Position numbers and translations under genes: made by a program
Shown: in pieces, positions 4,298 through 56,047 of the stretch
How the letters are laid out: each line of letters opens with the position of its first letter
Numbering within the stretch: position 1 is the stretch's first letter
Notes under the pieces: model-generated
Databases searched by the model: none
Seen by the model: only the letters and a program-made list of their open reading frames with translations
What the model was told of the DNA's origin: nothing
Source of the DNA: an uncultured bacterium
GTDB taxonomy: Bacteria > Patescibacteriota > Minisyncoccia > Phycocordibacterales > Phycocordibacteraceae
DNA length: 64,000 nucleotides
NCBI GenBank assembly: GCA_947085985.1
Contig: CAMTYL010000003.1
Coordinates: forward strand, 234,108-298,107
Direction of reading: 5' to 3'

Positions 4298-7039
4298 TTA
4301 TGATAAATATCGCTCCCTGATTATACCTTCAACGGTAGCACGGTCTCGCCCGTAGGTCAGGAACGACAACTGCCTAAGGTCGTCTACCTGGTCTGGGTTC
4401 CCTGGCTGCAGTGGCACGGTCTTCATATTGAACGGCTTCTGCGGTACGCCATTTGCAAGCATGCGCACATACGCGTTACGGTTTTCAATATTCACAAAGT
4501 CATGTGCAGTAAATACTGGCGCAAATTGCTTGGCAAAAAACTCGGCATCTTCCTCGCCCACACGGAATACCGCCATATTACCCACGTTGCCAAACACCGC
4601 ACCGCGAATCTTCTCGTCCACCTGCGCGAGGTACTGGTGGGCAATCGTAAGCGAGAGCTTGTATTTACGGGCTTCAGAGAGAATGCCTGGAATGGAGGAC
4701 GTGGTGATGTTCTGGAACTCATCAATGTAGAGGTAGAAAGGAGGGAAGTTCTTCCCCACAGAATCAGCACGCGAAAGCGCCGCCATGAAGAGTTTGCCCA
4801 CAATGATAAGCCCGAGCAGGTTTGCGTTGCGCTCTCCCAGGCGACCCTTGGATAGGTTCACCAGTAGAATCTTCTTGTTATCAATGACCTCGCGGAACTT
4901 AAACGAAGATTCCTGCTGCCCAATGATTGGGCGCATAAAGTCGTTTGACGTGAACTCATCAATTTTGTTGGTGATGTAGGGCACCAAATTTTGCAGTGAT
5001 GCTTCGCCCTCTGTTTTAGTCGCAATCTCATTCCAGAACTGGTTAACCACTGCGTTGTTGCTACGAGAGAGCTTTAGATTTCTGAAGGCGGCATTAGACA
5101 TAACGCGTCCAATATCCATGAGCGTAGAACCTGAGGAAGGGTCCTCCATCACAAGCTGCGTCGCGTTTGTGAAATACTGCACAAACATTGGCCCCATAGA
5201 CTCGGGCACGTCTCCATAGAGTTGCTGGAATATAGCCAACATCTCGTTCACAATGAACGACTTTTGCTCAGGGCGTGCTGGATCATACTCCAACATGTTG
5301 AGTCCAAATGGTCGGTCAAGACTCGCTGGGTCAAAATAAATGACGTCCTCGTATCGCTCCGGAGGAATGCTTTCAAGTACTTCTATGACGTCGTTGCCGT
5401 GCGGGTCTATAAAACACACGCCGTTGCCTGCACGGATGTCCTGGTCAATAAGGGTGCGGAGCATTCCCGACTTACCTGCACCCGTCTGCCCGATGACATA
5501 GAGGTGGCGAAGCCGGTCTTCTGGAGAAATGCGTATTTCTGTTTCCACCCCCCTGTACGTATTGGTTCCCAGAATAGTACCTTCACTTGGTAGTCCTAGT
5601 GGAGGAGGAGCCACGGCTGCACGCGACTGCTTCAAGTGTGGAGACGACTCTATACCCTGTGGAGGGAAGTGGTAGAGGGTAGTGAGTTCACGAAGTGACA
5701 GCGGTACGTTGCTTGCCTTTTCATACAGACGGAAGGAAAAGTCGCGGAAGAATCGCTTCAGCCCGCTTTTGCCAGGACGCTTAAACTCAATACGGTTGCC
5801 CTTAGTATTCTCAAACTGATTGAAGGGTGCCTCTATTTCAGATAGCATTTGTTCCGCACGGTGCGCGTCCATGGACGAGGTCACGATGCGTATGTTTGTA
5901 GAAACAATCGGAGCAGCCATTTTCTTCTCCATCTGCTCAATAGCAGTTTCGTCCACAGGACGCTGTTCGGCATTGGTCTGTTTTGGGACAAACAGTCCTA
6001 CGGTCTCGCGCGCGAGGTCTCCGACAAACGTTTCAGGTAAACTAAATGCGCGTGCTCGATGCTCGCCCTTGCGGAGCTGATACAAAATACGACGATAGTG
6101 TTCCATGTATTTCTGGCCAGAGGGCTTAAATACAATCTGGAGTGACGCCCCTTCATCTTCGGGCGCAATTTTGGCAAACGCGTTTAAAAGCGCATTGATT
6201 GGGTCGGCATCAAAATCCTGGTAATCCTTTAGCGGAAGCATCGGCTTATCTTTTAGTTCAGCCACTGACCCAACAGCAGAACCTCCATCTACAAATACGT
6301 TGTAGTCGTTTGGCTGAACGACCGCGATGGCATCTGGGAAAATTGCGTGGAGCTGCTTCTCAAACAGGTCACGTCGTGAATTTGGAATAGCAGCATAAAA
6401 CATAAGGTGCGTGCGGTCCACGGGCACGGCCAACTCAAGGGTCATGTAGGACAACTCCCCCGCGTGGGCACTCTCTAGTCCGAGCATGCCTGAATAAAAC
6501 TGCTCCATACTAGAAACAAGCTCGCGCAGTGGGCGCATACGACCGCTTCCATCGTCTCCCTTGTGCTCTGGAAGGGATATTTCATACAGCGTCATGTGGA
6601 GCGCCTTCCATTCCGGCTGACTCTCACTAATCCCTCGCAGAGGCATGCCAGCAAGAAGGTACTGCACCAGGAAGCGGTGGAAGTCGTCGTCTAAGTGAGG
6701 GCTTCCTACTTTATCTAGAACAGCCATCGCGTTTCGCACACCCTTCGTTTCCATAATGCCCCGCAACTCTTCAATGCTGGAGTCGGTGCTTGCTGGGTCT
6801 AAGTTTAGTGAGAGCTTTCGTGCAGCATTCTCAGCGTCTGCAACCGGCATGGCGTAGCTGGGGTGAAATGCCTCATCAGGGGTTGCTATGCGGTGGTGCA
6901 CAATACGTTCCCGTGCGATTTCCGTCCGCGGTTTTTCTACTCGCAGCGTTGCGAGCTCCTGCTCTTTTACGGCAATTTGTGCACGCAGATACGCGAGCTC
7001 CTCCTCGGGAGAGGTTAATGGCTGTACAGGCCCTTCCAT
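4298..7039 (-). CDS. P-loop NTPase of the VirB4 / VirD4(TraG,TraD) / HerA-FtsK superfamily, likely type-IV-secretion-associated ATPase (913 aa)
   Basis: Walker A VIGQTGAGKSGML. CFIDPHGNDVIEVL (DPxG motif as in T4CP/HerA). Walker B-like LYIDEFQNI. Downstream ARKYKLSLTIAHQ (Arg-finger/Q motif pattern of TraD/HerA-type ATPases). About 450-aa N-terminal extension of unknown function. Confidence 0.55.
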   Translation of the reverse strand: MEGPVQPLTSPEEELAYLRAQIAVKEQELATLRVEKPRTEIARERIVHHRIATPDEAFHPSYAMPVADAENAARKLSLNLDPASTDSSIEELRGIMETKGVRNAMAVLDKVGSPHLDDDFHRFLVQYLLAGMPLRGISESQPEWKALHMTLYEISLPEHKGDDGSGRMRPLRELVSSMEQFYSGMLGLESAHAGELSYMTLELAVPVDRTHLMFYAAIPNSRRDLFEKQLHAIFPDAIAVVQPNDYNVFVDGGSAVGSVAELKDKPMLPLKDYQDFDADPINALLNAFAKIAPEDEGASLQIVFKPSGQKYMEHYRRILYQLRKGEHRARAFSLPETFVGDLARETVGLFVPKQTNAEQRPVDETAIEQMEKKMAAPIVSTNIRIVTSSMDAHRAEQMLSEIEAPFNQFENTKGNRIEFKRPGKSGLKRFFRDFSFRLYEKASNVPLSLRELTTLYHFPPQGIESSPHLKQSRAAVAPPPLGLPSEGTILGTNTYRGVETEIRISPEDRLRHLYVIGQTGAGKSGMLRTLIDQDIRAGNGVCFIDPHGNDVIEVLESIPPERYEDVIYFDPASLDRPFGLNMLEYDPARPEQKSFIVNEMLAIFQQLYGDVPESMGPMFVQYFTNATQLVMEDPSSGSTLMDIGRVMSNAAFRNLKLSRSNNAVVNQFWNEIATKTEGEASLQNLVPYITNKIDEFTSNDFMRPIIGQQESSFKFREVIDNKKILLVNLSKGRLGERNANLLGLIIVGKLFMAALSRADSVGKNFPPFYLYIDEFQNITTSSIPGILSEARKYKLSLTIAHQYLAQVDEKIRGAVFGNVGNMAVFRVGEEDAEFFAKQFAPVFTAHDFVNIENRNAYVRMLANGVPQKPFNMKTVPLQPGNPDQVDDLRQLSFLTYGRDRATVEGIIRERYLS

Positions 7040-7096
7040 ACTCTCTAGTATACGGCACTACTGCACGCATTCTGTCTCTACCCTGTAGAGAGCGCC

Positions 7097-7435
7097 CTAG
7101 TCTGTCTTGCGAATGATGATGTGGAAGAAGGCGTTGATGAGTGAGAGCACAATAGAGAAGAAGAGCGCGCCCCAGAATCCTCCCACAGAGAAGTCTGGCA
7201 CAATCGCGGCTGCCAAAAGCACTAGCAGTGCGTTAATCACCAGTGAAAACAGTCCCAGCGTCAAAATTGTGATAGGGAGCGTAAGAATAGCAATCACCGG
7301 CTTTACAAAGAGGTTCAGCACACCGAGCACCACCGCAAGAATAACCGCGCCAAGCAGGGTGACGTCGGTGTTAGGCACAATGTACCCAGCAATCAGTATT
7401 GCAACGACTGAGACGAAGAAATGTACGATGTTCAT
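7097..7435 (-). CDS. DUF360 / phage holin family 4_2-like membrane protein
   Basis: 112 aa, 4 predicted TM helices. Pattern LLGAVILAVVLGVLNLFVKPVIAILTLPITILTLGLFSLVINALLVLLAA...FWGALFFSIVLSLIN fits DUF360 consensus. Confidence 0.6.
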   Translation of the reverse strand: MNIVHFFVSVVAILIAGYIVPNTDVTLLGAVILAVVLGVLNLFVKPVIAILTLPITILTLGLFSLVINALLVLLAAAIVPDFSVGGFWGALFFSIVLSLINAFFHIIIRKTD

Positions 7436-7446
7436 GATGGGTACGG

Positions 7447-8130
7447 TTATGGTGTTACGAATGTAAATGTCGCAATAATTCTAGCAAGCTTGGCGTATTC
7501 CTCGTCCAGTACTGCCTGCGGAATGTCGCGGTCACTCGCAGCCTCGCGGTAGTTAGAACCAACGGCTAGCTTCTCTATCGCAAAGCAGGTGTTTTGGTGC
7601 ACCGTGCGATATGAAATGCCCCGCACGTACTGTTGCATGCCGGCGTTCTCAAACGAGTACGCCTTCCAGGTGGTGCCACCCATAACAATTTCAGTCAGCT
7701 CAATCTCTCCCTGGTCAGCTGCTGCGAAAAGGCATTCCTTCACTTCTTTACTATCCTTGCTGGCACCAATGCGAATAAGCGCGTCAAAATAGCGAGGGTA
7801 GCTATCTTTGCTCTCGGTAGAATATGTAGTGAACGACACGATAGGAGTGCCGACAGTCTCTGTGCCCGCCGCTACACGCCATAGTGCTGGCAGATGGTAC
7901 CCTGCAGCAAATGTCTCCGACACCACTGCCGACTCGGGGTACTGCAACATAAAGCCGTAGTCTCCGCTAATGTATATAGCGTCGCCTGGAGTCATAGGGA
8001 TATTATCCTCTTCGGTGCCAAACGAGTCAGCGAGCCGTTGACTTGAATCAACTAAATACCACGCCGCCCCGAGCGCGATAGCCACAAGCACAGTCGTAAG
8101 TAGTGTAATGATGAGTGTTCCGCGCTTCAT
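7447..8130 (-). CDS. hypothetical membrane-anchored protein (N-terminal TM, 227 aa)
   Basis: ORF with N-terminal hydrophobic anchor LIITLLTTVLVAIALGAAWYL. No recognised domain. Confidence 0.4.
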   Translation of the reverse strand: MKRGTLIITLLTTVLVAIALGAAWYLVDSSQRLADSFGTEEDNIPMTPGDAIYISGDYGFMLQYPESAVVSETFAAGYHLPALWRVAAGTETVGTPIVSFTTYSTESKDSYPRYFDALIRIGASKDSKEVKECLFAAADQGEIELTEIVMGGTTWKAYSFENAGMQQYVRGISYRTVHQNTCFAIEKLAVGSNYREAASDRDIPQAVLDEEYAKLARIIATFTFVTP

Positions 8131-8196
8131 ATATAAAAGTATAGTCTAGAGAACGCTGTCCCCACAGAACTATGTGACGGACAGCGAGCTGTTGTA

Positions 8197-9768
8197 TTAC
8201 GCGCAGGCCAGGTGAAGCTGACGCACTACATATTCGCGAGGCAAAACCGAGAGAAACCAGCCCGCCTTTGGACCAGAATCCCTATCCAGAAACACACGAT
8301 AGAGAGCCTGGAATAACTCTTTGGGAGCAATAGGTACCTCTGTCTTTAGTTGATGCAGTTTCTCGTGGAGCTCTTCACCAGTGCGCTCACCCTCCCCCAG
8401 AAACTGCGCCAGTGCGCCTAGTGCTGTCTTTTGTACCGCAGACAACTCCAGTCCACTTGGCAGCTCTTGCTGCAGACGGTACTGATGAGCCAGAGGCGCG
8501 TAGGTAGATAACCAGTACAGAGCATAGGTCTCACGCTCTTCTAGCACTCGTACTTCTTCCTTGGTGAGAGCTTCTCCCTTTATTCGCGCGGCTTCCTCAA
8601 GCAGTGATACATGGGGCATCTGCGCTATGAAAGCTACCTGCGAAAATCGCAGTATCCATGGTGCCACGTTATCCGCGCGCTCGTTTGGCAATTGCGTGTA
8701 CGCGTACAATCGGGTAAAATCATCCGCGACACCCGTTCGCACCAACTCCGACAAGTCGTCGTGCCAGTCATACATCCGCGGTACCGAGTCCCCTTCGGGG
8801 TCAACATCCACTTGCTGATTTATGTCCTTGCCAATAAGGGCGAGTCTAAACACCGCTGGAGGGAACAGATCACTCATATCGCGCGCAGAAGAGCCGCGAC
8901 CCTTTGAGGAAGACATTTTTTTGCCACCGACGAGAAAGAACTCATATGGCACGTCAAATGGTGGCTCGTAGTTGAACAATTCGCGTGCAATGTGCGCTGC
9001 GGCGTCGCGTGACCCGCCTTTGGTAGAGTGGTCCTTGCCAGCTCCTTCAATATCTACCTGTTGCACCATCCACTTTGCGGCCCAGTCCGCCTTCCAGAAC
9101 AACTTGGACGCCCCCTTCCAAGGAGCGATACGTCCCGTGTGTCCACACGGGACCGTTCCATCTGGACCCTTGTCGCACGCGTAGCCCACTGTTTCTCCAT
9201 CAAAATCAAACGCCCGCGTTGTCATCATCTTTCCACACGCCTCACACACCACCGACACCGGTAGCCACGACTCGTCCTTCACACTTCCAGATACTTCCTT
9301 CAAAATACGGCGCACATCAGCTGCGCGGGTAAGCACGGTTCGGATACAGTCGTCCATTTTTCCAGACTGGTAGAGCTCGGTTGCGCGGTAGTACGTAGGA
9401 GTAAAGCCTGACTTTTGGTGCACTGCTACAAACTCAGCACCAAAGTATTCCGCATAGTTATCGTATCCAGGAACGGGAGAAGGCACAGTGTACAGCGGCT
9501 TCCCTAAGTGTTCAGTGAACACTGCCTCGTCTAAGTAGCCGGGAATGCTATCAAAAGGGTCAAAATCATTTAACTCGTACCGGTACTCGCTTTCTACTCC
9601 GCGTGCTGCGAGCGCCTCGTGAACAAGTCCGTGAATGGCAACTCCCCGCATACTACCAACATGAACCCTTCCTGAAAGGGTCTTCTCGTCACGAATGAGA
9701 AATGTCTTTCCGTCCCGCGGAGTGCGGGTGCGAATAATGTCGTCAGCAATGCGGTCTGCCCAGAACAT
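8197..9768 (-). CDS. lysK: lysine--tRNA ligase, class I (archaeal/CPR type)
   Basis: HVGSMRG (HxGx class I motif) and KMSSSKG (KMSKS-equivalent of class I LysRS). Length 523 aa. Confidence 0.8.
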   Translation of the reverse strand: MFWADRIADDIIRTRTPRDGKTFLIRDEKTLSGRVHVGSMRGVAIHGLVHEALAARGVESEYRYELNDFDPFDSIPGYLDEAVFTEHLGKPLYTVPSPVPGYDNYAEYFGAEFVAVHQKSGFTPTYYRATELYQSGKMDDCIRTVLTRAADVRRILKEVSGSVKDESWLPVSVVCEACGKMMTTRAFDFDGETVGYACDKGPDGTVPCGHTGRIAPWKGASKLFWKADWAAKWMVQQVDIEGAGKDHSTKGGSRDAAAHIARELFNYEPPFDVPYEFFLVGGKKMSSSKGRGSSARDMSDLFPPAVFRLALIGKDINQQVDVDPEGDSVPRMYDWHDDLSELVRTGVADDFTRLYAYTQLPNERADNVAPWILRFSQVAFIAQMPHVSLLEEAARIKGEALTKEEVRVLEERETYALYWLSTYAPLAHQYRLQQELPSGLELSAVQKTALGALAQFLGEGERTGEELHEKLHQLKTEVPIAPKELFQALYRVFLDRDSGPKAGWFLSVLPREYVVRQLHLACA

Positions 9769-40129: not shown

Positions 40130-40169
40130 TGGGTGTGTATGGACAGGACGTAACAAGTTTCGGCGACCC

Positions 40170-40203
40170 TGCAAAGGGTCGCCGAAACTTTTTCACTATG
40201 GTA
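40170..40203 (+). terminator. rho-independent terminator after the LAGLIDADG ORF
   Basis: TCGGCGACCC-tgcaa-AGGGTCGCCGA then AACTTTTTC. Confidence 0.6.
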
Positions 40204-40428
40204 TCCTCGTACTTCCCGCAACGATAGTAAACAGGAATCCCCGATGCCGTTTGGAGTGCTTAATCTGTTCTTCCCCGTTGTAGTTTCCGCTCTGTTTGCG
40301 CCCGCGACTTCTACCCGTCGCGACGACGGCGCCGACACCGACAAGCCGCCTCTTGTGGGCGGCGAAGATTTTGCCCAGTGGGGTGCGCCCGAACGCGCAC
40401 GTTGTCACGGCTAAAGCCACAACGGGAA

Positions 40429-41264: not shown

Positions 41265-42152
41265 ATGCGTTTTCCGTTATGTGAAGGTCATGATAGCATC
41301 CCAAGTATTGTGAAGCACCTGGATAACGCTCTCCCGCTACTGTGCGTTGTGGGGCCCACTGCCTCGGGCAAATCTGCGCGCGCGGTAGCGCTCGCAAAAG
41401 AGCTGGACGGTGAGGTCATTTCCGTAGATTCTCGCCAGGTGTATCGGATGCTTGATATCGGCACCGAGAAGACAACCGTGGAAGAAATGGACGGCATTAC
41501 TCACCACCTCATAGATATTCTTGACCCGCGGGAATCCTACAGCGCGGCTGACTTCGTGCGCGACGCAGAGCGCCTGATCGTTGACATTGAAGCGCGTGGC
41601 AAGCGCCCCATACTAGCAGGAGGCACGCACTTCTATTTTGAAGCGCTCATATACGGACTGCCAGAAACGAGTGCCCCCGACCCCACTGCAAGGCTCGCAC
41701 TTGAAGCACTCCCGACAGAGGAACTTGTGTCTCGTCTTAAACACAGCGACCCGCGACGAGCGGAGCGCGTTGACCCTCAGAATCGCCGTCGCCTTATCCG
41801 TGCGCTTGAAATAGTGGCCGAGCATGGTCACGTGCCAGAGCGCAACACCGAGACGCCACTGCGAGACGTAGAGTGGGTAGTTATTAACCCCGAGCGCGAC
41901 GTACTGCGCGAGCGTATCACCAGCCGTCTTGAGTCAGCATTTGCTCGCGGACTCATAGAAGAGGTGCGCGGCGTCCGAGACTATGTGGGCGACACTCGTT
42001 TGAACGAACTAGGGCTTGAATATCGCGTCATCGGCGAGTTTCTGCGTGGCGAACGCGAGGAAGATACGCTTCTATCTACCCTCTCAACAAAGCTCTGGCA
42101 CTACGCGCGCCATCAAAAGGCATGGCTGCGCAAACTAGCTGCCACCACTTAG
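41265..42152 (+). CDS. miaA: tRNA dimethylallyltransferase
   Basis: P-loop VVGPTASGKS. DSRQVYRMLDIGTEK. THFYFEAL. Longest ORF from 41214 would overlap the divergent peroxiredoxin start; ATG at 41265 used. Confidence 0.8.
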   Translation: MRFPLCEGHDSIPSIVKHLDNALPLLCVVGPTASGKSARAVALAKELDGEVISVDSRQVYRMLDIGTEKTTVEEMDGITHHLIDILDPRESYSAADFVRDAERLIVDIEARGKRPILAGGTHFYFEALIYGLPETSAPDPTARLALEALPTEELVSRLKHSDPRRAERVDPQNRRRLIRALEIVAEHGHVPERNTETPLRDVEWVVINPERDVLRERITSRLESAFARGLIEEVRGVRDYVGDTRLNELGLEYRVIGEFLRGEREEDTLLSTLSTKLWHYARHQKAWLRKLAATT

Positions 42153-43126
42153 CGACCTGTTGGAGACCAGTGCAATGGATCGGTTGGTAGCGCATTTCTG
42201 AAGCCCCACTTACTACCATTCGCCTTAAGCCAGTTGTAAGTTTTGGTATTACATCCAGACTGGCCATTCTTACACCCAACGGATATATCTATGGCGACTC
42301 CGGAATTGTGATTGGAACCGTTACCTCCCTTTGAACAAGGAATCGCAGCCTTTCCTGACCCAAGTCTGCTCCAAATCGCCACCTGCTGTGCTTCGGAACG
42401 ATACGCGCTAGTGACTTTCAATGTCACTCCTTCCTTGCGCGCAGCTTCGTGCATTGCCATAAAGTTCTTTACGGTGGCTGGTGTCGCTTTTCGTGCCTCA
42501 CCACCGGTGACTGACGTTGGAAATGCCACCATGCTTGACTCGGGCGCGGCCGGACAGTTCTTTCCACCGACGGCTGGATTTACGGGAGTATCATTATCCC
42601 AAGATTCGCTGAGCATAAGTTCACCGGCGGTGATTTTTCCGGAAAACAGAGAGTCCATGTTGTCAGTCTTTCGCACACACGCAGAACCACTGCCCAAAAT
42701 GCTGTTCCATGGACCCCAACTCGCATCACTCGGGTTGTACAGCGTCTTCATGACAAAGTCCACAATCAGCCATGCGGATAGCGTGATGAGTAGGCCAATA
42801 GCAGCATTGCCGAGCATCTTTCTCGCTGTGCTCTTTGCTTCAGGATTCACTGCGGATGTGATGAGAAGGAACCCTGCCCACGCCATAATTATGACAAAAA
42901 AGAGCACGCCAAGCGCAATGGCAACGCCAAGCAAATTTTGTACGACATGCATCATTGCACCAAAGGAAAGCGGGTCCCCTTTGTTACAAGTTGGATCCAA
43001 GTCGCTTGCGTCCGGAATGATGTGGAATCCGCTCCCAAGAGTCGGTATTCCTTGTGCTTGAGCAAACACCGGAGCAATCAGTCCTACAAGAAGCGTGAGC
43101 GTGAGAATTGGAATGAATAGTTTCAT
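42149..43126 (-). CDS. fusion protein: signal peptide + pilin-like two-helix membrane module + C-terminal M15/VanY-type D-Ala-D-Ala carboxypeptidase domain
   Basis: N-module GAMMHVVQNLLGVAIALGVLFFVIIMAWAGFLLITSAVNPEAKSTARKMLGNAAIGLLITLSAWLIVDFVMKTLY. Peptidase motifs SAYRSEAQQ, HNSGVAIDI, WGFRN...DPLHWS. Longest ORF to 43186. Confidence 0.65.
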   Translation of the reverse strand: MKLFIPILTLTLLVGLIAPVFAQAQGIPTLGSGFHIIPDASDLDPTCNKGDPLSFGAMMHVVQNLLGVAIALGVLFFVIIMAWAGFLLITSAVNPEAKSTARKMLGNAAIGLLITLSAWLIVDFVMKTLYNPSDASWGPWNSILGSGSACVRKTDNMDSLFSGKITAGELMLSESWDNDTPVNPAVGGKNCPAAPESSMVAFPTSVTGGEARKATPATVKNFMAMHEAARKEGVTLKVTSAYRSEAQQVAIWSRLGSGKAAIPCSKGGNGSNHNSGVAIDISVGCKNGQSGCNTKTYNWLKANGSKWGFRNALPTDPLHWSPTGR

Positions 43127-43130
43127 ATAA

Positions 43131-43661
43131 CTATGGCAAAGGCTCTGCACCAGGACAGAAGCTGAGACCAAGGTCGTAGCCCCCATAGGTGTCGGAAAGT
43201 CCCGGCGTAGTACGTACCGATACTGCCAGCTTACAAAGCTCTGGTTCAGTCATTTCTAGTTTTGCCTTCATGGCAGCTTCTGCGCGACGACGCACTTCAC
43301 CCAGTGGCTCTGACTGTATGTTTACCAAAAATTCGCCCAGACCCGCGGCAGCGTCTGGAGGGAAGTACAGAATAATGTACGCATCTTCGTCAGAGCCCGC
43401 AAAAAGATACCCGGAGGCTACCCCAGCCCAATCTGGCTGATTCTCCTTTGTAAAATCCCGAGCCTGCACGGTAGAGCCGTCACGCAGTGAGAGTGTGAGT
43501 GTCTTTGATGCTACTGAGGCAGTGCCACCCGTAAACCCAAACGGGCTTGTGGTTGGCTCACTCGGTATTGGCTTGCCTTGTGAGAGAAATAAGAACAGAC
43601 CTGCACCAATTATTGCGACTACTACTAGCACCCCCGCGCAAGCAATCAAGACGTACTTCAT
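43131..43661 (-). CDS. hypothetical membrane-anchored protein (176 aa)
   Basis: N-terminal TM YVLIACAGVLVVVAIIGAGLFLFL, then a Thr/Ser-rich extracytoplasmic domain. Confidence 0.45.
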   Translation of the reverse strand: MKYVLIACAGVLVVVAIIGAGLFLFLSQGKPIPSEPTTSPFGFTGGTASVASKTLTLSLRDGSTVQARDFTKENQPDWAGVASGYLFAGSDEDAYIILYFPPDAAAGLGEFLVNIQSEPLGEVRRRAEAAMKAKLEMTEPELCKLAVSVRTTPGLSDTYGGYDLGLSFCPGAEPLP

Positions 43662-43683
43662 AGAAAAATAGTATCACGCATAC

Positions 43684-44751
43684 TTACTTACCTGCTTCAC
43701 AACCTTTTACATTGCGGATCGGCGTAACCTGACAGCGACTTGCCGAACATGCCCAGTCACTAAAATCCATATTCTTGTCCATTGCACAAGCAGCTGCCGT
43801 GCTTACGGCTGGATCCTTTGCGGCCTCGACACATGCACTGTATAGGGCCTTTGCCTCACTCGTATTCTTTATTTCAGAATTACACCAGCCTGGATGGTTG
43901 GCCTGGTCAGTGTAGTTTCCCTTCATACACGGCCGCGTAAAGGCATCTGGGCACTTCAGTGTCTTGCCGTCCTTCTTAAGCTCATGCACCGTAAGGTTTA
44001 TCTGCCACAAACCAACCGAATACGATGGACCTTTTCCATTATTCAACTTGTCGCTCCCGCTTACAACACGAGTGTTACCGCCAGCGCTTTCCATATTGCA
44101 TATAATTGCCGCGTCTGAAGCTCGCTTAGCAAAGCATGTCTTTTGCATACTAGTCACGCTGCACGGATTACTTTGCGTGACGGGCGGTTGACACTTCGGG
44201 CCAGCGGAAATGCCACTGGTTCCCGAAGAGCCACCTTCATAGGAGGATGTGGTGAGCTGGCCCGCAGTGATTGGCGCATCAAAAAGAGCTTTCATATTCG
44301 TCGTCTTTTGCACGCAGGTATCTCCACCCGTCAAAATTGAGTTCCAAGGGCCGAACTTTCCCTGTTGACCGTCAGGTCCGCTATACAAGGCCTTCATCAC
44401 AAAATCAACAATGAGCCACGCAGAGCACACAATCAGAAATCCAATCACCGCATTGATGAGCATCTTGCGCGCCGTACTCTTTGCCTCAGGATTAAACGGA
44501 GACATGATGAGAATGAATCCTGCCCACGCCATAATCACCACTGCAAAGAGTATGCCCACTGAGATGCCCGCGTTTATGAGGTTCTGGGCTATGCCCATTA
44601 CCCCCTCAAACCCGCACGGACAAGAGCGGCAGGCCTCTGGCACCAAGCTCCACCCGGAAGAGAAGAGTGGCATGTCCTGCGCACGGGATACAAGCGGGAC
44701 AGCAAGCAGCATTGCTGCCGAAATAATTGGAGTCGCCCGGACTAACTTCAT
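43684..44751 (-). CDS. fusion protein: signal peptide + pilin-like two-helix membrane module (paralog of 42149-43126 N-module) + VirB1/Slt-like lytic transglycosylase domain, Cys-rich
   Basis: N-module MGIAQNLINAGISVGILFAVVIMAWAGFILIMSPFNPEAKSTARKMLINAVIGFLIVCSAWLIVDFVMKALY. ESAGGNTRVV...YSVGLWQIN (catalytic E-S and GLxQIN motif of GH23/VirB1-type transglycosylases). Confidence 0.55.
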   Translation of the reverse strand: MKLVRATPIISAAMLLAVPLVSRAQDMPLFSSGWSLVPEACRSCPCGFEGVMGIAQNLINAGISVGILFAVVIMAWAGFILIMSPFNPEAKSTARKMLINAVIGFLIVCSAWLIVDFVMKALYSGPDGQQGKFGPWNSILTGGDTCVQKTTNMKALFDAPITAGQLTTSSYEGGSSGTSGISAGPKCQPPVTQSNPCSVTSMQKTCFAKRASDAAIICNMESAGGNTRVVSGSDKLNNGKGPSYSVGLWQINLTVHELKKDGKTLKCPDAFTRPCMKGNYTDQANHPGWCNSEIKNTSEAKALYSACVEAAKDPAVSTAAACAMDKNMDFSDWACSASRCQVTPIRNVKGCEAGK

Positions 44752-45309: not shown

Positions 45310-46224
45310 TTATCCGTACTTCTTAAGAAAATCTGCTACTTTAATGTAGCCAAGTTTCACTTGATGTGGTGCAACCCCAGTCTCCAAAAAATCGGCATAC
45401 TCTTTCTCCTTTACATTACCCTTCTGATCAATAAACTGCCCCCAGAACATGAGGCCAGACGGGTATGCATCAGAGTCATCTGCGACGGAGAAGCCGACAC
45501 GCCTTGCTATCGGTGTGTCCATAAGCCAGGAGCGTCCAATAATATATTTTGCATTCGGGCTGTTCTCCTTAATAGACGTTGCGAGCTCGCGAAAGGAATC
45601 CTGAGAGAAAATATTTACAGCTGAAATTTCATCATTTTCAACTTGCTCTGCAAGCGGAGTAACATGAATCTCAACAACTTCGTCCTCTGCAGATATCTGT
45701 GGGAAGTCAGGAAAGAGCTTCCCGTTAAATACTGCGTAGCCTATTAATCCCGCATGAAAAGGACCTCTTCTATCTTGTGGCGGCATCTCCTCTGGTACCC
45801 TATCCTCAACTACCTTTTCTCCAATCTCTGCTGCAGAAAAACTTTCTCCCACTTTTGAAACGATACTCGGTAAACGAGGAATGAATGATGTATCCTCGGG
45901 CGCGTAGCTGGCATCAACAGCATCAAGTACACACTGAGTAAATGATTGGTATGTATCTGGTAGCTGCCAGGAGTGCTTTCTCGTATTCGTATAGAAAGCG
46001 TCAGAGATAAGGGGCTGGAGAATGTAACAGTCGTGAAGGTATGAACTTAGTCGCTCCCCCTTTGGAATAGTTTCTGTGCTCGGTGTTTTACCTTCCCATA
46101 CGCGTACCCGGTACTGAGTCTCAAGCGAATCAAGCTTTGCGTATACCGACTCCTTAGTTTCAGCGGGGCTTGTTTCTGCTATAGCAGGTCGTGGCTTTTG
46201 TTCAGCAATACCTTCGTATCCCAT
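45310..46224 (-). CDS. hypothetical protein (start ATG 46224; longest ORF from GTG 46269)
   Basis: Intact 300+ aa ORF. No recognised motif. Confidence 0.4.
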   Translation of the reverse strand: MGYEGIAEQKPRPAIAETSPAETKESVYAKLDSLETQYRVRVWEGKTPSTETIPKGERLSSYLHDCYILQPLISDAFYTNTRKHSWQLPDTYQSFTQCVLDAVDASYAPEDTSFIPRLPSIVSKVGESFSAAEIGEKVVEDRVPEEMPPQDRRGPFHAGLIGYAVFNGKLFPDFPQISAEDEVVEIHVTPLAEQVENDEISAVNIFSQDSFRELATSIKENSPNAKYIIGRSWLMDTPIARRVGFSVADDSDAYPSGLMFWGQFIDQKGNVKEKEYADFLETGVAPHQVKLGYIKVADFLKKYG

Positions 46225-46251
46225 GACGAAACTGTAGCATAGTGAAAACCC

Positions 46252-46280
46252 TTGACACCGAAAAGCCACTTTGATAGATT
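46252..46280 (+). promoter_or_regulatory. sigma-70-like promoter TTGACA-N17-TAGATT driving candidate sRNA 1
   Basis: TTGACA 46252-46257. TAGATT 46275-46280. Confidence 0.45.
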
Positions 46281-46286
46281 ACTTGA

Positions 46287-46362
46287 ACTGCCAACAAGTT
46301 CGTCTCCGGACAGACTTTGCTGGCAGTACAAAGAAACCGCCCTCGGGCGGTTTCTTTGCTTT
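46287..46362 (+). ncRNA. candidate small RNA 1 (~75 nt): 5' imperfect hairpin (CTGCCAACAAG...CTTTGCTGGCAG) + terminator hairpin AAACCGCC-ctcg-GGCGGTTT + U-tract
   Basis: Promoter-TSS-terminator spacing. No plus-strand CDS. The terminator hairpin is identical to that of candidate 2. Confidence 0.4.
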
Positions 46363-46403
46363 CTAATACGAAATCACACGGTTAAAGGCTATCCACAGGG
46401 TGC

Positions 46404-46432
46404 TTGACAAGAAAACCGGGATAGTATATCTT
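46404..46432 (+). promoter_or_regulatory. sigma-70-like promoter TTGACA-N17-TATCTT driving candidate sRNA 2
   Basis: TTGACA 46404-46409. TATCTT 46427-46432. Confidence 0.45.
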
Positions 46433-46438
46433 ACGTAG

Positions 46439-46512
46439 GTGCTCATGAGTTTTCGCTCTCGGGCAAATTCTTGTGAGCACACTGGAGAAACCGCCCTCGG
46501 GCGGTTTTTCCA
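46439..46512 (+). ncRNA. candidate small RNA 2 (~75 nt): 5' hairpin (GTGCTCATGAG...CTTGTGAGCAC) + terminator hairpin GAAACCGCCCTCGGGCGGTTT + UUUUU
   Basis: Same architecture as candidate 1, 150 bp downstream. 24-nt identical terminator segment. Confidence 0.4.
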
Positions 46513-46629
46513 TTTACGGGCAGTCAACTCGCTTGCGAGTTGCTTTGCCCCTTATGCAGGATTCTGGCTGGGCTTCCTCGCCAGAATCCTGCGAAAGGAG
46601 AAAGTACTTACATTTCAATGCCCAAAACA

Positions 46630-46660
46630 AAACCGCCCCTTCCGAGGCGGTTTTGCTATC
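46630..46660 (-). terminator. rho-independent terminator of rpmG (third member of the AAACCGCC...GGCGGTTT hairpin family)
   Basis: Minus strand reads AAAACCGCC-tcggaagg-GGCGGTTTT then GTTTTGGG. Confidence 0.55.
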
Positions 46661-46678
46661 TGCGCGAATCCCTATCTG

Positions 46679-46831
46679 TTACTTCTTAACCTCCTTGTAT
46701 ACCTCGCGCTTTCGGGTGTTTGGGTCGTATTTCTTAAGCTCCAACTTTCGAGTGACCTTCTTCTTATTCTTGGTGGTCATACGAATGTGTCCCGAAGGAG
46801 ACTTCATTTTCTGTAGGCGGTCTTGTGACAT
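46679..46831 (-). CDS. rpmG: 50S ribosomal protein L33 (zinc-less form)
   Basis: MSQDRLQKMKSPSGHIRMTTKNKKKVTRKLELKKYDPNTRKREVYKEVKK aligns with L33 ...[40 protein letters not shown]. Internal start within a longer 80-aa ORF. Confidence 0.8.
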   Translation of the reverse strand: MSQDRLQKMKSPSGHIRMTTKNKKKVTRKLELKKYDPNTRKREVYKEVKK

Positions 46832-46862
46832 AGATAGGCAGACTATACCAGCGGGCGGGATA

Positions 46863-49541
46863 CTACGCAACTGCGACAGGAGTCTTAGCCTTAGCCCGCT
46901 TAGCGGTCTTCTGGACCTCAAACGAAGGCACTCCGCCCTTAAGTACTACCTTTACCACTCCACCCTCCATAATGCCCTGTCCAATCATCAGCGAGGCGAT
47001 AGGGGTCAGAATCTTGTCCTGGATAGTGCGCTTCAGGGGGCGAGCTCCGTACTGTGGGTTGTAGCCCTTGTCTGCAAGCCATGCCTTTACCTCGTCAGAA
47101 AGTTCAAGCGTAATGCGCTTGCCACCAAGGCGAGCGACCACTTCCTTAACCTGCTTCTCCACAATGCGAGCAAGTGATTCCTTGCTGAGCACATCAAAGA
47201 TGACGATGTCGTCCAAGCGGTTCAAGAACTCGGGACGGAACTGATTCTTAAGGGCCTGCATCACACGCTCCTTAATCTGCTCGCGCTCAGCCTCTCCTTC
47301 GGCGCTGGATGCTTCAAAGCCAATGCCTGCCATACGGTCCATAAATTCAGAACCGATGTTCGAAGTAAGCACAATGATGGTGTTCTTGAAGTTCACCTTC
47401 CTGCCCTTTCCGTCAGTAAGGTGACCTGAATCAAGAACCTGAAGAAGAATGTTGAACACCTCCGGATGCGCCTTCTCAATTTCGTCGAAAAGCACAACGG
47501 CGTACGGTCGGTGGCGAATACGCTCCGTGAGCGAGCCTGCTTCCTCGTATCCCACATATCCCGGTGGGGCACCAATAAGCTTTGCTATTGAGTGCTTCTC
47601 CATAAACTCCGACATATCCACGCGCACGAGCGCTTCCGTGTCGTTAAACATAAACTCCGCAAGTTTGCGTGATAGCTCGGTCTTACCTACTCCCGTTGGC
47701 CCCATGAATAAGAAGGAACCAATCGGACGATTTGGGTCACTAATACCTACACGAGAGCGCTTTACGGCGTCAGTAATGATCTGTACCGCTGCGTCCTGCC
47801 CAATAACCGCCGCTTTGAGCTCATCCTCCATGCGAGAGAGTTTTGCTGCCTCCTCTTCAAGCATCTTCACGACCGGAATTCCTGTCCAGCGCGCCACTAC
47901 TCCAGCAATCTCTTGCTCAGTCACTTCCTCATGCAGTACCCGGCGCGACTTCTGAAGCGTCTTCAGGCGCTTTGATTTAGTCTCCAATTCCTTCTGTAGA
48001 GTTGGCATTTGTCCGTAGCGAATTTCTGCAGCGGTGCCAAGGTCAGCAATAGCTTCTGCGTTGTCAGAGGCCACGCGCAATCGATCCAGCTCGGCCTTCA
48101 GAGCACGAATGCTTTGAATAACCTCCTTCTCGTTCTTCCACTTAAGCTCAAGCTCGCTGGTCTTCTCGCGCCAATCTGCAATCTCTGCATCAATAGTTGC
48201 AATGCGTCCCTTGATTTCCTTTGCATGCTCACCCCCTTCGTCTTTCTTCAACGCCTGGCGCTCAATCTCAAGTCGGCGAATCCTTCTATCTGTCTCCTCA
48301 AGTTGTGGCGGCTTGTTCTCAAGCGCAATACGAAGGCCTGAGGCAGCCTCGTCAATCAAATCAATTGCTTTGTCTGGCAAAAAACGGTCGGTAATGTAGC
48401 GACTAGACAGCTCTACTGCAGACACAAGCGCACCGTCCGTAATACGCACCCCATGGAAGAGCTCGTACCTATCACGAAGACCACGCAAAATTGCCACCGC
48501 GTCCTCAATGGACGGCTCATTTACATACACAGGCTGGAAGCGGCGCGTAAGCGCTCCATCCTTCTCAATGTGTTGCTGGTACTCCTTAAGCGTTGTCGCG
48601 CCAATCACGCGCATCTCTCCGCGTGCAAGCGCTGGCTTTAGCATGTTGCTTGCGTCCATCGCGCCGTCGGCCGCCCCTGCTCCCACAATCGTGTGTAGCT
48701 CGTCCACAAACAAAATAACCTTGCCCTCGGAGCGCTCCACCTCCTTCATTACATTCTTCATACGCTCCTCAAATTCTCCGCGGTATTTAGTGCCCGCAAT
48801 CATGAGTCCTAAATCAAGCGACAGCAGCTCCTTGCCCTTTAGACTCTCAGGCACGTCACCCGCTGCGATGCGTGCCGCTAGACCCTCTGCCACGGTTGTC
48901 TTTCCGGTACCCGGCTCTCCAATCAATACGGGATTGTTCTTGGTGCGGCGCGAGAGGATTTGAATAACGCGATTAATCTCTTGGTCGCGACCAATGACTG
49001 GGTCCAGCACATTGTCTGCAGCAAGCTTTGTTAAGTTGCGAGTGAACTTGGTAAGCGCGCGGAACTTTTTCTCACCAGTCACCTGTCCGTCCTTAGACGA
49101 CTTTAATTCCTTCAACACCTGCATGACGGTGTCTGCGTCAATTTTAAAACGCGAAATGATTTCCTCGGCAGGGCCTGGGTGCTCAAGCACCGCCACAAAC
49201 AGGTGCTCGGTTCCGACAAAGGAATCGTTCATTCTCGCTGCCACTTTCGCAGCAGACTCTAAAGCGCTTGCCAAGTCTGGCGTGAGATACAAATTATAGG
49301 AAGGGGAAAGAGTGCCCGCGGACTCTGGCATTTCTAGCATCTCAAGCAAGGTGTCAGCCAAGAGCATGGTGTCCGTGTCCATGCGATCTAGTACGGAAAA
49401 GACAAGGCTCTCTTCCTGATAGACCAGCGCAGCAAGAAGGTGCAAGGGGCTCACGTGGTTTTGCCCCCGCTCAATAGCAAGCTCGTGCGACTTCTTTATC
49501 GCTTCTTTGGCCTTTGTAGTGAAATTCTTGAATGGTGGCAT
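46863..49541 (-). CDS. clpB: ATP-dependent chaperone ClpB
   Basis: Clp N-domain. AAA1 [13 protein letters not shown]. Long coiled-coil M-domain. AAA2 [17 protein letters not shown]. 892 aa. Confidence 0.9.
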
Positions 49542-55676: not shown

Positions 55677-55749
55677 GCGCCCTTAGCTCAGTTGGTAGAG
55701 CAACTCCCTCTTAAGGAGATGGTCCCTGGTTCGAATCCAGGAGGGCGCA
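55677..55749 (+). tRNA. tRNA-Lys (anticodon CTT)
   Basis: GCGCCCT-TA-GCTCAGTTGGTAGAGC-A-ACTCC-CTCTTAA-GGAGA-TGGTC-CCTGG-TTCGAAT-CCAGG-AGGGCGC-A. Confidence 0.8.
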
Positions 55750-55796
55750 CAAATAAAAACACCCGGACCTCCGGGTGTTTTTATTTGTGCGCCCTC
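55741..55796. terminator. 56-bp perfect palindrome made of the tRNA-Lys 3' end (GAGGGCGCACAAAT), a terminator hairpin (AAAAACACCCGG-acct-CCGGGTGTTTTT) and an inverted copy of the tRNA 3' end (ATTTGTGCGCCCTC)
   Basis: Read directly. Outer arms 14 bp, inner arms 12 bp, 4-nt loop. Confidence 0.75.
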
Positions 55797-56047
55797 AGGA
55801 AGACATCTGCATGTCTTCCGTCTGGATTCGAACGCCGGAGCATGTTTCTCTCAGCAGAGAGAAACAGCGAGGCGGTGCCCGACCTAAATTTCTTGAGCGC
55901 AGCGATTAGAAATTGAAAGTACTCCTGTGGTGCAGAGCAAGCCGAGTGACGACGAGGCGCAGACTCGCGGGCGAAAAGCGTAATCGCGGTCCAGGATGAT
56001 TTTATCTGTTTGTGCAGCTTATGATTTCTGGTACCATAGCAAAACAA

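Follow-up and report, generated by a model that had tools for sequence, protein, structure and literature searches.

What is encoded in the gap between the ribosomal protein gene rpmG and its neighbor in a genome of the Patescibacteria (candidate phyla radiation, CPR)? The 64-kb stretch analyzed here (contig CAMTYL010000003.1; "the window" throughout) comes from a genome near Paceibacteria/Kaiserbacteria-like metagenome-assembled genomes (MAGs). On its minus strand, clpB, rpmG, a 454-bp intergenic region, and a gene for 304 amino acids (aa; 45310-46224) follow one another, and the intergenic region contains two similar plus-strand units, which we call A and B. From the letters alone, the original prediction proposed that these were two tandem small RNA (sRNA) candidates and named paralogous sRNAs, a type I toxin-antitoxin-like RNA pair, or a duplicated transcription unit as what they might be. 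Comparison with related genomes leads us to favor, with a probability of roughly 80%, the explanation that they are genuine, conserved, paralogous sRNA genes, two in tandem. The family is previously undescribed and is restricted to one Patescibacteria sublineage (Paceibacteria-like).

Two promoter-to-terminator units

Unit A (46252-46362, plus strand) consists of TTGACA-N17-TAnnnT, a long imperfect hairpin, a G+C-rich hairpin, and a U-tract, and unit B (46404-46512, plus strand) has the same layout. Both of the TTGACA-N17-TAnnnT promoters originally proposed are present. The putative unit A promoter (46252-46280, plus strand) has its -35 box TTGACA at 46252-46257 and, after a 17-nt spacer, its -10 box TAGATT at 46275-46280; that of unit B (46404-46432, plus strand) has TTGACA at 46404-46409, a 17-nt spacer, and TATCTT at 46427-46432. 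A promoter scan returned exactly these two sites, each with 10/12 matches. The looser pattern TTGAC-N(17-19)-TAnnnT occurs seven times on both strands of the 64 kb, and two of the seven are the promoters of units A and B. The long imperfect hairpin begins 6-7 nt past the -10 box in both units.

Each stretch folds stably into a 5' hairpin followed by a terminator hairpin, with energies of -43.0 kcal/mol (z = -8.9) for unit A (46287-46366) and -44.2 kcal/mol (z = -8.4) for unit B (46439-46518), in agreement with the transcript-sized layout of ~75 nt that had been suggested. The predicted RNA of unit A (~75 nt, 46287-46362, plus strand), whose start and end were derived from promoter and terminator geometry, would have its 5' hairpin at 46287-46327, its terminator hairpin at 46329-46358, and a U-rich tail. 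For unit B, the predicted RNA (~73 nt, 46438-46512, plus strand) would be made up of a 5' hairpin (46439-46480), an AC linker, and a terminator hairpin (46483-46512). The unit A terminator, T1, has 13 pairs (7 G-C) and the tail CUUUCU; the unit B terminator, T2, has the GC core CCGCCC-UCGG-GGCGG (CCGCCC/GGGCGG), then the tail UUUUUCCAUUU. Within the 64-kb window, AAACCGCCCTCGGGCGGTTT is found at 46334-46353 and 46488-46507 only, with 0 occurrences expected by chance. A terminator common to the two units was thus correctly recognized, while the exact identity between them is 22 nt (AGAAACCGCCCTCGGGCGGTTT, at 46332-46353 and 46486-46507) and not the 24 nt first reported.

Homologous units in related genomes

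Homologs were gathered by two routes. One followed synteny and was unbiased as to the RNA, using loci that encode close ClpB relatives, taken from a genome collection and from exact-protein look-ups. The other was a single metagenome scan with a terminator-only pattern, ACTGGARAAACC-N6-16-GGTTTTTCCA, which gave 33 matches; 11 were accompanied by a full unit, and the other 22 were unrelated terminators. As the pattern left out the promoter and hairpin 1, those regions are unbiased. The window ClpB (46863-49541, minus strand) shares 82% identity with the ClpB of loci L001-L003 and 76% with its counterpart in a Kaiserbacteria MAG, and metagenomes hold many ClpB relatives at 83-96% identity. The two routes together yielded 24 units from 20 distinct loci of related Patescibacteria, which share 82-100% ClpB identity with the window. 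Several of the homologous contigs derive from Hainich groundwater assemblies (contig names Hain_H41, H43, and H52, accessions ERZ12926xx). A single B-type copy is present in L120 (ClpB 91%), L126 (90%), L127 (89%), L084 (88%), and the more distant RNA-carrying relatives, and two B copies are present in L121 (87%).

Pattern and model searches covering the 64-kb window and ~250 kb of related loci revealed the sRNA nowhere else. With filters off, the covariance models R1 (for the sRNA) and R2 (for a neighboring hairpin module), both introduced below, placed window copies only at 46286-46598 and copies in related loci only at the syntenic site. Weak matches at 55741-55828 and 40155-40236 were rejected as extra copies, being ordinary terminator palindromes. 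A dispersed repeat of the repetitive extragenic palindrome (REP) or miniature inverted-repeat transposable element (MITE) kind was likewise rejected, as copies are confined to one locus within the 64 kb of this genome and the related loci. Viral contigs gave 0 matches to the terminator pattern and hence no hint of a phage origin.

Conservation of the promoters

When the 24 units from the 20 loci are aligned on the -35 box, TTGACA, the 17-nt spacer length, and the T, A, and final T of the -10 box are invariant in 23/24 units, and the distance from the -10 box to the hairpin is constant at 6-7 nt in 23/24. The spacer sequence and most of the upstream sequence vary. Only L122, whose copy is the most diverged, departs from this. 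Selection acting on a putative promoter would be expected to leave such a pattern. Conservation of the hairpins without the promoters had been named beforehand as the outcome that would speak against sRNA genes; the opposite was found, with the boxes and their spacing kept in all units except that of L122.

A 9-mer resembling a DnaA box, CTATCCACA, lies upstream of unit B (46389-46397, plus strand). In most B units of the relatives, a 9-mer of this kind stands ~24-25 nt upstream of the -35 box, and the variants (CTATCCACA, TTATCCCCA, and ATTTGCACA) each differ from the DnaA-box consensus TTWTNCACA at one position at most. Often, CCC(T)CCCAAAA comes next, immediately ahead of the -35 box. By our estimate, the chance that a conserved 9-mer would resemble a DnaA box this well is ~0.03. 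DnaA boxes are not enriched in the window, which has 10 sites within one mismatch versus an estimated ~14 expected. The 9-mer may be a regulator binding site or an UP-like element, and we treat it as a lead only.

Covarying structure and strand

RNAalifold recovered the same two hairpins from 14 B-type sequences, with compensatory changes in 14/30 pairs. The covariance model R1 was built from these 14 sequences, with no A-type sequence among them, and it aligns 21 units. In that alignment, 95.7% of cells are standard pairs, versus 42-54% when the partners are slid by 1-3 columns; 20/30 pairs change on both sides, and the observed values were reached by 0/500 shuffles. In the lower stem of the 5' hairpin, 9/11 pairs change on both sides. 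The lower terminator stem looks invariant in the pattern-selected sequences and covaries in the synteny-derived loci L121 (CUGAAGAAACC/GGUUUCUUCA) and L122 (AAUGGAAAAGCC/GGCUUUUCCAUU). The terminator itself, a GC-rich stem followed by a U-tract, is kept in all units. Conservation and covariation in related genomes, which had been proposed as a check, are therefore seen in the 5' hairpin as well as in the terminator.

The substitutions also distinguish the strands. There are 60 G.U cells versus 12 A.C cells, and 596/623 cells are canonical when read on the plus strand versus 548 on the opposite strand; both counts indicate an RNA on the plus strand. The 5' hairpin is irregular (~19 bp), with a U-rich internal loop and an apical YNCG tetraloop (CUCG, UUCG, or UCCG), and the U-rich loop and the 2-nt linker are the only conserved unpaired parts. 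Together, the alignments show selection on the promoter, structure, strand, and terminator of the predicted RNA.

Paralogy of units A and B

The B-only model R1 scores unit B of the window at 96.4 bits and also finds unit A (46286-46366) at full length, with 60.6 bits and an E value of 8.7e-12. A tandem of A then B with both promoters recurs in three relatives, L081 and L125 (ClpB 96%) and L083 (92%), where R1 matches the A-type orthologs at 8700-8782 (L081), 8600-8682 (L083), and 7227-7307 (L125). Recovery of A by the B-only model and recurrence of the tandem bear out the originally listed options of paralogous sRNAs or a duplicated transcription unit. Among the sampled relatives, the tandem is limited to ClpB identities of 92-96%, and some loci in that range are without it. 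The hexamers and spacing of unit A are identical in all three A units of the relatives, and its hairpin hardly varies among the four genomes; where the window has an A.C mismatch, L083 has a G.U pair. The DNA between units A and B is not conserved.

The stretch shared by the A and B terminators measures 22 nt in the window and 30 nt in L125, and the two differ more in L081. Since its length varies among genomes, the identical hairpin is a local feature of this genome, and the variation suggests gene conversion between tandem copies. On the basis of this sampling, unit B is the widespread form, and unit A is a diverged paralog.

Other identities considered

At gathering thresholds, the 4227 models of Rfam 15 recognized only 7 tRNAs in the window. 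Between 46100 and 46800, with E<=10, the best scores were those of Phe_leader (24.5 bits, gathering 55), RNAI (22.3, gathering 47), and rnk_pseudo (22.1, gathering 55); on inspection, the Phe_leader and RNAI alignments match mainly via the terminator hairpin. The Rfam scan that had been recommended thus places the units in no Rfam family, with scores far below gathering. A search of the literature on sRNAs in Patescibacteria/CPR found nothing relevant, and TIGR-Tas arrays, in the part of their description available to us, are unrelated in architecture.

We also considered whether the region could encode protein. Two plus-strand open reading frames (ORFs), 46439-46816 and 46473-47177, pass through rpmG and clpB in antisense and lack a Pfam match, which upholds the earlier statement that there is no plus-strand coding sequence (CDS) here. 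No local ORF on either strand had a Pfam match or a conserved frame, and indels of 1-3 nt in the hairpin and loop break every reading frame across the homologs. The small ORFs that were to be looked for inside the transcripts accordingly have no conserved representative on either strand.

A leader, attenuator, or riboswitch was rejected because the next gene 3' of the unit is on the opposite strand in every locus that extends past the unit; that gene is rpmG or, in L081, in L083, and at the second L121 copy, an inserted gene. Unit A is unlikely to be an antisense RNA to the divergent gene 45310-46224, as it is not always beside that gene (L083). A back-to-back promoter (TATGCT, on the minus strand, 11 nt ahead of the ATG) probably drives that gene.

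The rpmG terminator and the H3-H4 module

The intrinsic terminator of rpmG (46628-46655, minus strand) reads AAAACCGCCUCGGAAGGGGCGGUUUU then GUUUUG, has a U-tract on the minus strand only, and lies ~24 nt after the rpmG stop; UUUUGUUUUG follows the hairpin on the minus strand. Relatives have an equivalent hairpin after rpmG. The original prediction described this hairpin as a third, diverged copy of the sRNA terminator that serves rpmG. Its role as the rpmG terminator stands, given the minus-strand U-tract, and its homology to the sRNA terminators is not supported, with R1 scoring it at just 9.8-15.6 bits (E 0.1-2). It may be a generic terminator with an A-tract, a GC stem, and a T-tract.

The 12-bp-stem hairpin noted earlier between the units and this terminator is also present (CAGGATTCTGGC at 46557-46568, GCCAGAATCCTG at 46580-46591), and it proves to be part of a conserved two-hairpin module, H3-TTATG-H4. 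Hairpin H3 occupies 46518-46551 (plus strand; GGGCAGTCAACTCGC..GCGAGTTG..GCCCC; alignment A5, model R2). It is followed by TTATG-H4-CGAAA at 46552-46596 (plus strand), in which H4 (46557-46591) has the conserved loop YGGGCTTYC and the trailing motif is CGAAR across copies. Model R2 scores the window module at 82.6 bits, and its matches are limited to this neighborhood. In an alignment of 7 copies from 5 loci, 16/30 pairs have compensatory changes. The layout and the covarying stems recur in L081 (three copies), L107, L117 (two H4 copies), L121, and L125. Copies are located at 46517-46598 in the window; 8402-8484, 8618-8704, and 6872-6958 in L081; 7146-7232 and 6855-6940 in L125; 6931-7017 in L121; 77-162 in L107; and 1584-1669 in L117.

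There are 0-2 copies of the module per unit, and their number, orientation, and sequence vary even at 96% ClpB identity. For example, unit A is followed at the same site by GGGGCAGTC... in L081 versus AAGTAAAACC... in L125, and both of these loci also have H3-H4-type copies immediately past the rpmG stop, oriented like rpmG. For the window copy, read-through of T2 is the only way to be transcribed. The module may be an RNA element of the 3' end or a structured repeat that recombines locally. An integron attC site or an IS200/IS605 end was rejected, as by eye there is no R'/R'' core-site consensus, and there are no dispersed copies.

Other features were observed in this part of the locus. In L081 (6855-7065) and L125 (6855-6945), fragments of the rpmG 3' end (AAGAAATAA then C(A/T)GAATT...) are repeated two to three times and bracket H4-type hairpins, which resembles a target-site duplication or repeated local duplication. 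In L081 (7229-8311) and L083 (7044-8114), the sRNA is separated from rpmG by a gene of 356-368 aa that has no Pfam match and is absent from the window. In L121, the 368-aa gene (7279-8385) is flanked by near-identical B copies at 7013-7096 and 8459-8542. Judged by eye, the start of the inserted gene's product (MKKH...) resembles a signal peptide. The sRNA terminator of L122 directly adjoins the rpmG stop, where it would act for both genes.

Genomic surroundings

The rpmG gene (ribosomal protein L33; 46679-46831, minus strand; Pfam PF00471 Ribosomal_L33, E 3.6e-8) is convergent with units A and B. By tblastn, it was convergent with an sRNA unit in 13/14 related loci searched, and the sRNA directly faces rpmG in 15 of the 17 related loci that hold the gene; in the other two, L081 and L083, the inserted gene stands between. 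On the far side of the sRNA unit, the neighboring gene differs among related loci. In the window it is 45310-46224 (minus strand), which is divergent from unit A and without a Pfam match. This gene has 32% identity to 8827-9807 of L081, in contrast to the 96% identity of ClpB between the same two loci; either it evolves very fast or the allele has been replaced.

The 31-nt spacer between clpB and rpmG (46832-46862, minus strand) reads TATCCCGCCCGCTGGTATAGTCTGCCTATCT then ATG and is without a Shine-Dalgarno sequence. An extended -10-like sequence, TGGTATAGT, lies just 10 nt upstream of the rpmG start, and the spacer is kept in relatives (...GACTATACCAG on the opposite strand). The rpmG gene may be transcribed from a promoter of its own, into an mRNA with almost no leader. 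From the sRNA to a pair of pilin genes, gene content differs among related genomes, and the window also has a tRNA-Trp in this stretch. The pilin genes (42149-44751) encode T4SS_pilin domains, in one case together with a fused VanY domain; they are downstream of the variable region and syntenic in relatives. Elsewhere in the window, a long perfect palindrome (55741-55840) comes directly after tRNA-Lys (55677-55750) and extends the 3' end of the tRNA (GCGCACAAATAAAAACACCCGG...CCGGGTGTTTTTATTTGTGCGC). It is followed by a stretch like a tRNA T-arm fragment (GGATTCGAACGCC). Its weak matches to R1 and R2 are attributed to the terminator-like palindrome.

Discussion

How might such a locus work? In the explanation we favor, each unit would be read independently from a near-consensus sigma-70-type promoter, TTGACA-17-TAnnnT. 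Transcription would start at the base of the 5' hairpin and stop at a strong intrinsic terminator, two nucleotides past that hairpin, and the product would be a two-hairpin RNA of ~73-75 nt. We infer that the RNAs are made and stable. Unit B would be ancestral. A tandem duplication predating the divergence of this genome from relatives at 92-96% ClpB identity would have given rise to unit A, whose terminator would later have been partly homogenized with that of unit B. The H3-TTATG-H4 module would be a separate, locus-specific structured element. As to function, a structured protein-binding or decoy-type role is judged likelier than seed pairing because nearly all bases are paired, the apical tetraloop is structural, and there is no conserved single-stranded seed; among the functional options, we would give it about as much weight as all the others combined.

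Several observations weigh against sRNA genes at this locus or limit the explanation. The transcripts of both units, and their ends, are predictions. In the metagenome-derived copies, conservation of the terminator sequence was partly imposed by the search pattern. No sRNA was found within 4-6 kb of clpB in L003, L123, and L124 (ClpB 82-84%) or in L004-L009, which include loci labeled Saccharibacteria; the family is consequently lineage-restricted and dispensable, and its narrow, patchy distribution counts against it. The sRNA has no obvious conserved single-stranded seed, and duplexfold (ViennaRNA) comparisons of the B RNA with the -50..+25 regions of rbfA, infB, an aminotransferase gene, a 252-aa gene, clpB, and rpmG in six genomes gave no z beyond approximately -2 and no recurrent target, in what is a weak test that ignores accessibility. 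Finally, with its many hairpin modules, the locus is a hot spot of rearrangement, which leaves some room for a DNA-level or selfish explanation.

The main alternative to a protein-binding, decoy, or pairing role is one in cis. The units would then form a convergent-transcription device, with a leaky or conditional terminator from which read-through carrying H3-H4, antisense to rpmG and clpB, would modulate those genes, much as the 77-nt OOP RNA of phage lambda does cII. The unit is convergent with rpmG in nearly every locus, the L122 terminator abuts the rpmG stop, and H3-H4 is conserved on the sRNA strand (~16 G.U versus 2 A.C, as counted from the pair table), a strand bias that implies some read-through transcription. 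Nevertheless, the terminator is strong, with a 14-bp stem and a U5 tail, and does not overlap the rpmG CDS. Another gene intervenes between the sRNA and rpmG in L081 and L083, the second L121 copy is far from rpmG, and the conserved 5' hairpin would be left without a role. We therefore consider a device of this kind unlikely. Dispensing with an RNA gene altogether, one could regard the hairpins as terminators or insulators of flanking convergent genes and the hexamers as fortuitous, since the terminator hairpins are nearly palindromic and could act both ways, and the rpmG terminator has a similar core. This is largely refuted and, in our estimation, highly improbable: the hexamers, the spacing, and the hairpin distance are kept in 23/24 units while the spacer drifts, the 5' hairpin covaries without being a terminator, and the G.U bias marks the plus strand, where no gene needs a terminator. 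Even less weight can be given to a type I toxin-antitoxin pair or a small peptide, with one unit encoding a toxic peptide and the other an antisense RNA. It is true that two small units with a common stretch of sequence are adjacent and that short ORFs exist mechanically on both strands. However, the indels shift the frame, the substitutions are pairwise compensatory, no Pfam family matches, and neither an ORF nor the DNA between the units is conserved. Moreover, both units are on the same strand and are not mutually antisense, and most genomes have only one.

The variability of the locus raises the question of selfish or structural DNA, in which the units, or at least H3-H4, would be palindromes like REPs, MITEs, or recombination sites and the sRNA gene would be a hot spot. 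In favor of this, H3-H4 is variable in number and orientation at 96% ClpB identity, with variants at the same site differing strongly; the rpmG-orientation copies in L081 and L125 are bracketed by repeated rpmG 3'-end fragments; and the 368-aa gene of L121 lies between two near-identical B units. Against it, searches of the 64-kb window and of ~250 kb of related loci turned up no other units or modules, the adjacent genes include no transposase or recombinase, and the stems covary with a strand-specific G.U bias, as for RNA. We regard this as very unlikely; for H3-H4, a selfish or structural origin may hold without affecting the sRNA conclusion. A related idea keeps the sRNA genes and sees them, with their satellite H3-H4 modules, as a hot spot for recombination or insertion, a landing site, as tRNA and tmRNA genes are elsewhere, where streamlined CPR genomes insert and exchange genes, with the sRNA promoter perhaps under DnaA control. 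It rests on the L121 gene between duplicated sRNAs, the swapping of modules at 96% ClpB identity, and the repeats in L081 and L125 that look like target-site duplications, and we offer it as a speculative and rather improbable extension. If it is true, control by DnaA would couple the sRNA to replication status.

Known RNAs offer partial parallels to the proposed sRNA genes. FinP, CopA, and RNAI are plasmid antisense RNAs; FinP is ~79 nt long and has two stem-loops, the second of which is its terminator. The RNAs predicted here are similar in size (~75 nt), in being nearly fully paired into two stem-loops with a 2-4 nt spacer, and in having a constitutive sigma-70 promoter and a terminator as the 3' stem-loop, features that are in our case predicted from sequence. 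In contrast to these antisense RNAs, those proposed here face no overlapping or complementary target gene on the opposite strand, and they are encoded at a syntenic chromosomal locus. Their apical loop takes the form of a stable YNCG tetraloop in place of a YUNR kissing loop, and the 22.3-bit match of the Rfam RNAI model (gathering 47) comes via the terminator only. The OOP RNA of phage lambda, which is 77 nt, is convergent with cII, overlaps the end of its coding sequence, and acts on it. Like OOP, our units would give a short transcript, bounded by promoter and terminator, that converges on the 3' end of a protein gene. Unlike OOP, the sRNA ends 20-170 nt before the rpmG stop, with the terminator of rpmG itself in between. 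Bacterial trans-acting sRNAs with Rho-independent terminators, including highly structured ones of the ProQ/FinO type, are also stand-alone intergenic genes with a conserved promoter and a terminator hairpin with a U-tail. As with sRNAs in general, the family is lineage-restricted, and it has tandem paralogs, as do Qrr and OmrA/B; it differs in having no identifiable single-stranded seed and in its host, an uncultured CPR bacterium. The H3-TTATG-H4 module, for its part, is reminiscent of REPs and bacterial interspersed mosaic elements (BIMEs), being imperfect palindromes between convergent genes, variable in number and orientation, and with structure conserved above sequence. It departs from them in that all copies are at one locus, the loop sequence is conserved, and no gene for a transposase of the REP-associated tyrosine transposase (RAYT) type was seen nearby.

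To our knowledge, the regulatory RNAs of CPR bacteria are essentially uncharted, as these bacteria are uncultured and their intergenic regions are seldom analyzed. The impact of the family is limited by its narrow distribution, and we consider it to be of moderate interest. Even so, it comes with unusually complete comparative support, including promoter, covarying structure, strand, terminator, and tandem paralogs, and provides a concrete and testable entry point. It also indicates that this lineage has conserved, and presumably uses, canonical intrinsic terminators along with sigma-70-type promoters close to the consensus.

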